Below, piece by piece: positions 3,001 to 5,929 of a DNA stretch of 5,929 bases. The stretch comes from a virus (lineage: Duplodnaviria; Heunggongvirae; Uroviricota; Caudoviricetes). Numbering within the stretch: position 1 is the stretch's first letter; every line of letters begins with the position of its first letter. The position numbers were made by a program. The DNA is taken from the IMG/VR virus record IMGVR_UViG_2690316115_000016, one strand, 5' to 3'.

Positions 3001-5929
3001 GCGCACACTGGTTGATGACAGCGGCAATAAAGCTCTGCGAATTGAGAAAAATAACAGCGCGAAATCCTGGTCAATGTACTGTGATATTGCTGCAGACAAG
3101 GCAAAACTTTTACTGGAAAAAGGCGGGGAAATTGCTGTCCGGTTTAAAATCCCCGAAAACGTCAATCTTGAGACAACCAGAAACAAGTATGCCTTTGGTT
3201 TGTACTGGCGAATAGCGGAATGGCCGGGTGAGGGTGGTGAAGGCCATCTGAGTTCTTTCTTTGTCCAGACAGATAAAGCCAGTATTAATGTTGCATACCA
3301 TCATACAGTTAATCAACAAAAAGAACTTGGCACGTTTGGCGCATTCGACCATGACTGGCATACGCTTGCATTTAAATTTAAGGGCAGTAACAGCATTAAT
3401 GTTACTCCGGTGCTTGATGGTGTGGATGGACAGGCGTTTGACCTGGTGAAATGGGCCAATACTGCTAATGGACTCAACAGGTTTGTCATTACGGATATTA
3501 CAGGTAGTGCAGAAACCTACCCTGTACTTATTGATACGGTGGAAGTTAAAGCAAACAAAGCTGGAGCAGCCGCATAATTGCTAAAAAAAGCCGCCAGCGG
3601 CAGGAATGGAAGCTGGCGGAGGTAATCCCAATGGAGAATGTAAAGAAAAGATGCTTTCGTACATTGGTTTTTTAAATGAAAACAATTCTCATTGTCAACC
3701 ATAACGGTAAGAAATTATGACATTTATTCATCAGGTGATGCTGTACTTCTGTACGGCGGTCTGTGTGCTGTATCTTCTTTCGGGTGGGTACAGGGCTGTG
3801 CGCGATTTCTGGTGCAGGCAGATTGATAAAAGGGCCGCTGAGAAAATCAGCGCCAGTCAGTCAGCCGGAAGCAAACCCGAAGAACCCGTTACTCCTTAAC
3901 AACCCCTTTCAGCGAGAAAATCCCATGTCAGAAATCACATCCCTGGTCACTGCAGAGGCAGTGAAGGAAGTCCTGCGCTCTGAAGAAGTCCGGAGCGCAC
4001 TGAAACAGAAACTTCGCCAGAATCTTGAGTCGCGTCTTGATGCAGAAGTGGATGCCATTCTGGATGAGCTGCTGGGCGTAGCAGCGGTTCCTGAGCCGGA
4101 AGGTATCGCGGGTGACGGGAGTGCTTCAGATGGCGGTGAACCTACACCTGACAGCGACATGATGATGTAAGCATGCGCAAGGGACCATCGGTGTGTGCCG
4201 GTGGTCTTTATATTGTTGTGAGCTTCCGGATTGCGGGAGACGGGGTATGTACCAGATGGAAAAAATCACAACAGGTGTGTCATACACCACGTCAGCGGTG
4301 GGAACGGGCTACTGGTTCCTGCAGTTGCTGGACAGGGTTTCCCCGTCTCAGTGGGCGGCAATAGGCGTGCTGGGGAGTCTGCTGTTTGGGCTGCTGACGT
4401 ACCTGACTAACCTGTATTTCAAAATCAAAGAGGACCGGCGTAAGGCGGCGCGGGGAGAGTAAGCTGATGAGCAGGAAATTCCGCTATGGTTTATCAGCGG
4501 TCGTTCTGGCGCTGATTGCTGCGGGCGCTTCTGCGCCTGAAATCCTCGACCAGTTTCTTGACGAAAAAGAAGGTAACCACACCACGGCATACCGTGATGG
4601 TGCGGGTATCTGGACTATCTGCCGCGGTGCCATCCTGGTGGATGGCAAACCTGTCGTTCCGGGCATGAAGTTGTCGAAGGAAAAATGCGACCGGGTTAAC
4701 GCCATTGAGCGTGATAAGGCGCTGGCATGGGTGGAGAAAAACATCAGAGTGCCACTGACCGAACCGCAGAAAGCGGGCATCGCGTCATTCTGTCCGTACA
4801 ACATCGGGCCTTCGAAATGCTTCACCTCAACGTTTTACCGGAAACTGAACGCAGGAGACCGGAAAGGTGCATGTGCTGAAATCCGCCGATGGATATATGA
4901 CGGCGGCAGGGACTGTCGGAACCGCTCAAATAACTGTTACGGGCAGGTATCGCGGCGTGACCAGGAGAGCGCGCTGGCGTGCTGGAGTATCGACAGATAA
5001 GCAGAATATTCTGCTGAAAAATGCCGTTGACCAACGCGAACGGATAACACGAAATCCTGCGAACTGGCAAAATTTAAGTGAGTAAAAGTAAAAACCCCGT
5101 TTGTTGGCAGCAAGCGGGGTTTTGTGTTTCTGACCTTGAATAAGGCAAGGGAGAAATTATGGGTAGGGAGGTTCTTTCCCTGTGAGGAAGTATAAAAGAT
5201 TCTTTCTGAGGTTGTCCATTATGAAAGGCATTGAGGTGGAGACGCCAGCAAGTCTGGATTTAACAAGAGCGGCAGCTTTTGCCATTCGTATTGTGGCAAT
5301 TGCTGTTCTGGTCTGGGCAATCCGTTGGTGGTGATATGAATCGTGTGCTGTATGGCGTGCTTATTGTCCTGCTGCTTGGTTGTGGATCGCTGTGGCTGGC
5401 AACAGACCATTACCGTGATAACGCCATCACCTACAAAGAGCAGCGAGATGATGCGAAGACAAAACTCAGCCAGGCGAACGCCACCATTGCTGACATACAG
5501 CAGCGCCAGCGTGATGTTGCTGCACTCGATGCCAGATACACCAGGGAGCTTGCTGATGCTAACGCGACTATTGAAAGTCTCCGTGCTGATGTTTCTGCTG
5601 GGCGTAAGCGCCTGCAAGTCGCCGCCACCTGTGCAAAGTCAACGACCGGAGCCAGCGGCATGGGCGATGGAGAAAGCTCAGGACTTACAGCAGATGCTGA
5701 ACTCAATTATTACCGTCTCCGAAGTGGAATCGACAAGATAACCGCGCAGGTTAACTACCTGCAGGAGTACATCAGGATGCAATGCCTCGATTAACAGAGC
5801 CAGCTCAATCGCTGGCCTTTTTTATGAGGTGAACCGCCCCGGGAATCCTGGAGACTAAACTTCCTGAGAAAGAGGTAAACAGGATGACTAAAAATACTCG
5901 TTTTTCCCCTGAAGTCCGTCAACGGGCAG

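Follow-up and report, generated by a model that had tools for sequence, protein, structure and literature searches.

What does a small protein with an acidic tail do when its gene stands directly before the pinholin gene of a lambdoid prophage? The question is raised by IMG/VR record IMGVR_UViG_2690316115_000016 (Caudoviricetes), a stretch of 5,929 nucleotides (nt) analysed here at its full length and referred to as the window. The window corresponds to the late-gene region of an E. coli prophage that is lambdoid and resembles Shiga-toxin phages, and it holds, immediately upstream of an S21-type holin gene (S), an open reading frame (ORF) of 81 codons that belongs to the Pfam family DUF826. 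An earlier, sequence-only reading had placed this ORF with the holin and had suggested that its product might bind and inhibit a host protein or mimic DNA. We have found that the gene goes instead with a NanS-p-type esterase gene and with the gene of a small membrane peptide, DUF1378, and not with the pinholin. The best explanation for its product, to which we give a probability of roughly 0.35, is that of a non-virion late protein and member of this block, working as a cytoplasmic adaptor together with DUF1378 at the inner membrane; on that explanation it would be neither a core component of the lysis cassette nor a DNA mimic.

The features on which the argument turns, all on the plus strand, are the following.

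1667-3577, plus strand: gene of the NanS-p-type sialate O-acetylesterase, first gene of a three-gene block (DUF1737, SASA and DUF6645 by Pfam matches)
3717-3899, plus strand: DUF1378 gene, 60 amino acids (aa) (PF07125, E 1e-35), with an N-terminal transmembrane (TM) segment and a positively charged C-terminal part
3914-3919, plus strand: Shine-Dalgarno-like GAGAAA, 5 nt before ATG 3925, read from the sequence
3925-4170, plus strand: DUF826 gene, 81 aa and stop (PF05696, E 3.1e-44)
3925-4077, plus strand: conserved N-terminal helical domain, residues 1-51, the family-defining part
4078-4146, plus strand: disordered acidic Pro/Gly/Ser linker, residues 52-74, differing in length and sequence between phages
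4147-4167, plus strand: C-terminal tip PDSDMMM, a short conserved motif
4180-4209, plus strand: terminator-like hairpin, 13 pairs followed by a T-rich run, from a pattern scan
4247-4462, plus strand: S21-family class II (pin)holin (PF04971, E 7e-33), with the dual-start motif M1...M4

The DUF1378 stop lies 25 nt before the DUF826 gene, and the DUF826 stop lies 76 nt before the holin gene.

The gene belongs to an esterase block

Neighbouring genes were counted in 97 DUF826-carrying sequences, that is, the window and 96 fetched loci, the denominators being the loci with enough flank. DUF1378 was found directly upstream of DUF826 in all cases (96 of 96), as was a NanS-p-type esterase further upstream (76 of 76), while the S21 holin was found downstream in 84 of 88. 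The four loci without an adjoining holin are Mu-like E. coli prophages, in which the order is tail-fibre assembly gene, Gin invertase, esterase, DUF1378, DUF826, a hypothetical gene, Com, Mom and prophage end; the esterase there has an N-terminal domain different from that of the window's enzyme, and the lysozyme and spanin genes of the prophage lie about 25 kb from the trio. The position before the holin, which the sequence-only reading gave as conserved, was therefore recovered in the 84 lambdoid loci, but the gene has neighbours more constant than the holin.

The three genes also diverge together. Diverged lambdoid relatives share 38-62% identity with the window in the esterase, DUF1378 and DUF826 and 77-100% in the holin, and the holin can be 90-100% identical where DUF826 reaches only 44-53%. 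At the nucleotide level identity to the window jumps to 88-96% from about position 4217 onward in distant relatives, and in one locus (L093) the rise, to about 90%, falls in the interval that separates the DUF826 stop from S. There is thus a mosaic boundary between the DUF826 gene and S. The hairpin at 4180-4209 falls on this recombination boundary, with the esterase block on one side and the lysis cassette on the other. Judged by its sequence it is terminator-like and may be taken to mark the 3' end of the block; a hairpin was found at the same position after the DUF826 stop, with different stems, in 933W, WGPS8, PhiR12_5 and L093, and in the Mu-like prophage a classical intrinsic terminator stands at the equivalent place (L086 5252-5279). 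Between the window and WGPS8 or 933W the stem changes include A:T to G:C and G:C to A:T.

S21 cassettes that lack DUF1378 and DUF826 were found in DLP12 of K-12, in phage Evi and in PhiR55_1 (checked with hidden Markov models, HMMs). The interval between the antiterminator gene Q and S therefore occurs with the block, as in the window, 933W and others, and without it, as in these three. Because of the neighbour counts, the joint divergence, the boundary before S, the Mu-like context and the S21 cassettes without the block, we assign DUF826 to the esterase block and not to the lysis cassette, and the association with the holin on which the sequence-only reading leaned proves to be incomplete.

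In its presence or absence between conserved flanks (Q and S), the terminator-like hairpin at its end and its transfer to another backbone the block resembles the lambdoid morons (stx, bor, lom, nanS-p). Unlike a moron it showed no promoter of its own in a simple consensus scan, which returned no plus-strand sigma-70-like site in 900-1750 or 3400-4500; since no such promoter was detected, the block is probably expressed from the Q-dependent late transcript.

The block is widespread in E. coli. Several E. coli chromosomes carry a 100% identical copy of the 771-bp stretch that runs from DUF1378 through S, and 1008 of the 5426 complete E. coli genomes match at least 80% of this stretch. In the phage collection it matches 346 records, mostly Shiga-toxin (Stx) phages (299 of the 346 over at least 80%), the corresponding counts being 347 for the esterase and 427 for S21. 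In its Shigella, Escherichia and Citrobacter range and in family size DUF1378 is similar to DUF826.

A branch of short, tail-less DUF826 relatives of about 60 aa comes from Salmonella, Pantoea and one E. coli record. Those of Salmonella and Pantoea have neither DUF1378 nor an esterase nearby and are sited between Rz and the terminase genes. From these relatives it can be concluded that the acidic tail, DUF1378 and the esterase occur together and that the helical domain can stand alone. In Salmonella and Pantoea prophages the tail-less genes have fixed neighbours of their own, encoding proteins of about 178 aa (with a faint MptE-like match in L092) and 287 aa and a 204-aa Methyltransf_23 protein (L104 4001-6944; L092 2898-5180; L106 1155-4098).

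A possible role in lysis timing

Since DUF826 stands immediately before S in most loci and is co-transcribed late, it could be proposed that DUF1378 in the membrane and DUF826 in the cytoplasm modulate lysis by the pinholin and the signal-anchor-release (SAR) endolysin, as RI and RIII of phage T4 act on holin T. The T4 proteins are an antiholin and a cytoplasmic co-antiholin, a small membrane protein paired with a small (about 80 aa) helical cytoplasmic one, expressed with the lysis genes, and the anatomy of DUF1378 and DUF826 fits such a pair. The TM segment of DUF1378 is strongly conserved (YFCT.VCVLYL.SGGY, with C12 invariant and C16 kept in most members, and an AEKISASQ motif after it), which is unusual for a simple anchor and suggests a specific membrane partner, as a lysis regulator would be expected to have. 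Furthermore, the two phage types with a DUF1378-DUF826 pair both appear to use R21-like SAR endolysins, and the P2-like prophages, which have a related esterase without the pair, lyse with a different holin and an M15 peptidase; this correlation covers three phage types only and is to be read as a hint. In the Mu-like lysozyme (L107 8572-9072, minus strand), which shares 33% identity with the R21-like endolysin of the window, the N-terminal segment, LIALVLAGAGTFTIA, is rich in Gly and Ala.

Nonetheless, we regard a lysis-timing role as unlikely. A mosaic boundary and a hairpin separate DUF826 from S, the Mu-like copy lies far from the lysis genes of its prophage, and the S21/SAR cassettes of DLP12, Evi and PhiR55_1 do without DUF826, so that coupling to a holin is not obligate. 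The PHROG search placed DUF826 in no lysis or lysis-inhibition family at E up to 0.1. There is no sequence relationship to RI or RIII, and, unlike RI, DUF1378 has no evident periplasmic sensing domain, its positively charged part following the TM segment as read from the sequence.

Reading frame and family of the DUF826 gene

The ORF runs from ATG 3925 to TAA 4168-4170, and its 81-aa product matches all 75 positions of the PF05696 model, scoring 149.4 bits where the cut-off is 25. Only two PHROG families were matched, phrog_311 (E 6e-37, residues 1-81 on profile positions 1-85 of 85) and phrog_8301, both labelled 'unknown function', and RefSeq E. coli genomes hold 100% identical proteins annotated 'DUF826 domain-containing protein'. 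The gene is a member of an already catalogued family and, on present evidence, no new kind of system; beyond the upstream start of phrog_8301, the window protein does not differ from a typical member.

The gene is genuine and under purifying selection. Among 28 distinct 81-aa alleles pN/pS was 0.14 over codons 1-51 and 0.27-0.32 over the tail, the variable sites being mainly third codon positions in both parts (15 of 22 and 11 of 18, respectively), and pairwise omega was 0.04-0.40, out to homologs about 40% identical. The existence of an 81-aa gene, as first read from the sequence, is borne out by this selection and by the full-length family match.

A mechanically called ORF reaches upstream to GTG 3763 and would give 135 aa. 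It was shown, however, that all diverged homologs start with M-[SPTA]-E/D-[IMV] after a Shine-Dalgarno-like sequence, which is stronger in these homologs (GGAGA, GGGAGG) and stands in the same position, and that some have a stop just upstream. Because of this conservation the 81-aa start is taken as the real one. The 135-aa ORF was rejected, as it overlaps the conserved DUF1378 frame and as distant homologs have upstream stops and Shine-Dalgarno sequences of their own. A fusion of DUF1378 and DUF826 by frameshifting was likewise rejected, the CCT-TAA-C at the DUF1378 stop offering, on reading, no credible +1 slippery site; the few fused proteins in databases (P0065, P0117) look like products of insertions or deletions. 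An antisense gene at 3909-4160 (minus strand, 83 aa) was dismissed as an artefact of composition, with P = 0.09-0.72 on synonymous resampling and an open frame that differs between homologs.

The annotations of 933W (148 aa) and VT2-Sakai (139 aa) use an in-frame upstream start and overlap DUF1378, which is unannotated in both records; phrog_8301 was likewise built on the long ORF. The long ORFs lie at 3763-4170 in the window, at 2808-3254 in L095 (ST933Wp43 of 933W) and at 2827-3246 in L096 (orf43 of VT2-Sakai). Two genes, one of 60 aa and one of 81-90 aa, account better for the evidence than a single ORF of 139-148 aa.

The family is narrow. When 1.84 billion representative proteins were searched exhaustively with an HMM, only 54 DUF826 matches were obtained, and a word-indexed search gave 110 clusters whose source names, where given, were all Escherichia or Shigella; the long-tailed members come from E. 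coli, Shigella and Citrobacter. A pattern scan of a one-genome-per-species collection returned no homologs, an uninformative result given so narrow a family and so strict a pattern. In the literature searched no functional study of DUF826 was found, the family being mentioned only in passing, as present between nanS-p and S, and no functional study of DUF1378 was found either. That the function is undescribed, as had been supposed, agrees with these searches, with the Pfam status of a domain of unknown function and with the labels of both PHROGs.

Protein anatomy and the acidic tail

AlphaFold2 modelled helices at residues 10-17 and 20-49, with a predicted local distance difference test score (pLDDT) of 90-97 over residues 21-50, and gave low confidence to the tail (block means of 40-56, residues 56-74 below 50). 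Of the 30 tail residues seven are acidic and none is basic, Pro, Gly and Ser being abundant, and the folded part has 11 acidic and seven basic residues; the whole protein has an isoelectric point of 4.1, a net charge of about -11 and a grand average of hydropathicity of -0.24. No signal peptide or TM segment was evident on reading the sequence. The helical N-terminal half and disordered acidic tail that had been proposed at the outset are confirmed by the model and by the composition.

Residues M1, T9, V13, K14, L17, K27, V42 and G51 are invariant among E. coli, Citrobacter, Salmonella and Pantoea members. In the alignment, tail indels and tail types give proteins of 78-101 aa. Nucleotide identity between the window and 933W is 96-98% in the N-terminal domain, 33-46% in the tail and 100% in the holin, the tail-coding segment 4078-4146 being a local hot spot of divergence from 933W. 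The 933W and VT2-Sakai proteins differ in tail type (90 aa and 81 aa), and the esterase of each is about 72% identical to the window's.

The tip of the tail is nearly always kept in long-tailed members, following the pattern (E/Q)P.P... and then two or three hydrophobic residues, with endings MMM, MML, TML, TLL, TTL and AMM. All 21 intact long-tailed cluster representatives (set A2) end in M-M/L or T/I-M-L, and distant long-tailed homologs end in TLL (P0114), TML (P0116), TTL (P0118) and AMM (P0120), with ILP in P0121 as the exception. The hydrophobic tip is thus retained among homologs whose linkers can no longer be aligned. DUF826 is built in three parts: the helical domain is folded, the acidic linker that follows it is disordered, and the chain ends in a short conserved tip.

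The SSB and FtsZ proteins of E. coli have a folded domain, a disordered linker and a conserved C-terminal tip. DUF826 is like them in its variable low-complexity linker and in the hydrophobic tip after acidic residues, and differs in that its folded part is a helical hairpin and not an OB (oligonucleotide-binding) fold or a GTPase, and in that its tips (...DSDMMM, ...EPGTML) are neither the DDDIPF of SSB nor the FtsZ C-terminal peptide.

Such a layout could also be that of a free-standing inhibitor or decoy which binds a host protein through its acidic tail, possibly as a DNA mimic, independently of its neighbours. The protein is small and acidic and has no enzymatic domain, its tip resembles a short binding motif, and its architecture recalls, by analogy, the SSB tail; that the tail differs between otherwise near-identical phages could mirror an arms race. 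Within one tail type, however, the tail is under purifying and not diversifying selection (pN/pS of about 0.3), and the existence of tail-less members implies that the core function of the family does not lie in the tail. Known DNA mimics of the Ocr and ArdA type have a folded scaffold with a regular array of carboxylates, whereas the acidic segment here is a disordered stretch with much Pro, Gly and Ser. No match to the DUF826 model was found by Foldseek against the PDB, a profile search against PDB sequences gave only a chance-level match (E 0.24), a helical hairpin with a disordered tail being poor material for searches against solved structures, and the PADLOC defence and anti-defence models gave no match. 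Late expression would also be odd for an anti-restriction function. With a variable, disordered tail, no rigid carboxylate array and no fold match, the suggestion of a host-protein inhibitor or DNA mimic finds no support here, and we hold it improbable. A tail with a conserved hydrophobic tip is compatible with the binding of some partner, whether of the host or of the phage.

The esterase and its possible dependence on DUF826

The esterase of phage phi24B (gp84) was reported to decorate the capsid as hexamers, to be anchored by its DUF1737 domain and to be processed after release (preprint 10.64898/2026.04.10.717836). Among the proteins covered from the phi24B virion proteome list, obtained with a six-frame ORF database, the esterase ORF (23254-25248) accounts for 2586 spectra, and no ORF from the DUF1378/DUF826 interval (about 25.3-25.9 kb) appears among them, a weak negative in that DUF826 yields few tryptic peptides.

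A structural enzyme that forms hexamers and is processed only after release might need a dedicated helper, and DUF826 could be its cytoplasmic chaperone, its assembly factor or a brake on premature processing. DUF826 and the esterase strictly co-occur and co-diverge in both lambdoid and Mu-like phages, and the numbers of phage records are nearly equal (347 and 346), which would agree with this. Small, acidic, helical, non-virion helpers of fibre or spike proteins are known in general, T4 gp57A being one, and DUF826 would be comparable in these properties and in having its gene near that of a virion-surface protein; unlike gp57A, it is parted from that gene by a membrane peptide gene, and there is no homology between the two. 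Such a peptide would be ill-suited as partner of a soluble chaperone, and no annotated chaperone PHROG was matched.

The P2-like prophages bear on the same point. They were matched in 375 of 5426 complete E. coli genomes and carry, between lysC and tail gene R, a closely related esterase, yet have neither DUF1378 nor DUF826. Recombinant NanS-p enzymes were reported to be active on their own (review PMC8065619). The tail-less relatives, conversely, have no esterase at all. A helper role is accordingly rather improbable, a shade more so than the two roles considered above.

An esterase with SASA and DUF6645 domains was found in three backbones, each with a different N-terminal domain (L086 2669-4750; L102 5244-7121; window 1667-3577). 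The N-terminus is DUF1737 in the lambdoid type, an unrelated stretch of about 130 aa in the Mu-like type, where the gene stands beside tail-fibre and invertase genes, and another one in the P2-like type, between lysC and gpR. This variety looks like a swapping of virion-attachment domains.

It is very hard to believe that DUF826 is a dispensable, hitch-hiking ORF conserved only because the block around it recombines as one. The many truncated or frameshifted database copies and a literature without a phenotype could be cited for such a view, but contig-end truncations in multi-prophage genomes account for most of the 'partial' entries, the purifying selection preserves start, helix, acidic tail and tip, and the ORF is kept in two unrelated phage backbones and four genera.

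Proposed function

We propose that DUF826 is the last gene of an accessory block (esterase, DUF1378, DUF826 and hairpin) inserted between Q and the lysis cassette, and that its product would act with DUF1378 as an adaptor or tether at the inner face of the cytoplasmic membrane. The helical hairpin of about 50 residues would serve as a docking or oligomerisation domain, and the flexible acidic tail would present the hydrophobic C-terminal tip, which might capture a second partner or mark the protein for turnover. The pairing with DUF1378 is proposed because the two genes are constantly adjacent and diverge jointly, because the trio recurs in Mu-like prophages and because the tail and DUF1378 occur together; a cytoplasmic location and a role of the tip are suggested by the anatomy described above.

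Several points weigh against this adaptor role. The interaction of DUF826 with DUF1378 is a prediction from genomic context, the adjacency of the genes may be simple linkage, and the Mu-like occurrence may trace to a single transfer of the block. The P2-like esterase indicates that the pair is unneeded for esterase folding or activity, and the tail-less relatives indicate that the helical domain functions without DUF1378 or an esterase. DUF1378 is no more than mildly basic in its cytoplasmic part, which makes a charge-based pairing weak, and the phi24B negative, given the few usable tryptic peptides of DUF826 and the portion of the protein list covered, is a weak sign of a non-virion protein.

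Further features of the window

Outside the block and the holin gene the window holds the following.

277-474: NinH
Ending at 901: antiterminator Q
1240-1445, plus strand: STnc100 element (Rfam RF02076), full-length match, 165 bits against a gathering score of 47
4467-5000: R21-like endolysin
5279-5794: Rz

The STnc100 element lies between Q and the esterase and ends in a terminator-like hairpin at 1415-1434; judged by its position, it is probably the late-promoter leader of the prophage, of the pR'-tR' type. No stx or tRNA genes were found in the window, and thus none follow the element, in contrast to Stx phages. The gap of about 280 nt between endolysin and Rz (5000-5279) has no convincing ORF, and related Stx phages carry insertions there (ant, KilA-N).

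A second small hairpin, GCTTCCGG...CGGGAGAC, lies at 4222-4240 on the plus strand, just before the two starts of the S21 holin (ATG 4247 and ATG 4256), and in every lambdoid locus examined it was conserved together with the holin module. The intergenic stretch of 83 nt, which takes in this hairpin as well as the one at 4180-4209, folds at -34.2 kcal/mol (z = -3.6). The second hairpin may control translation from the two holin starts.

Implications

Shiga-toxin phages and related phages carry DUF826 in their late operon, where the present findings attach it to the NanS-p esterase and the DUF1378 peptide and correct the over-long ORF annotations of 933W and VT2-Sakai. As a long shot, DUF1378 and DUF826 might together form a two-protein membrane device of esterase-carrying phages that use SAR-endolysin lysis, with DUF826 as its cytoplasmic regulatory subunit. 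If this were true, the device could couple the esterase to lysis, for instance by delaying lysis until the capsids are decorated, or the signal-less esterase would be able to act outside the cell without full lysis, and the C-terminal tip of DUF826 would be the switch or degron of the device.

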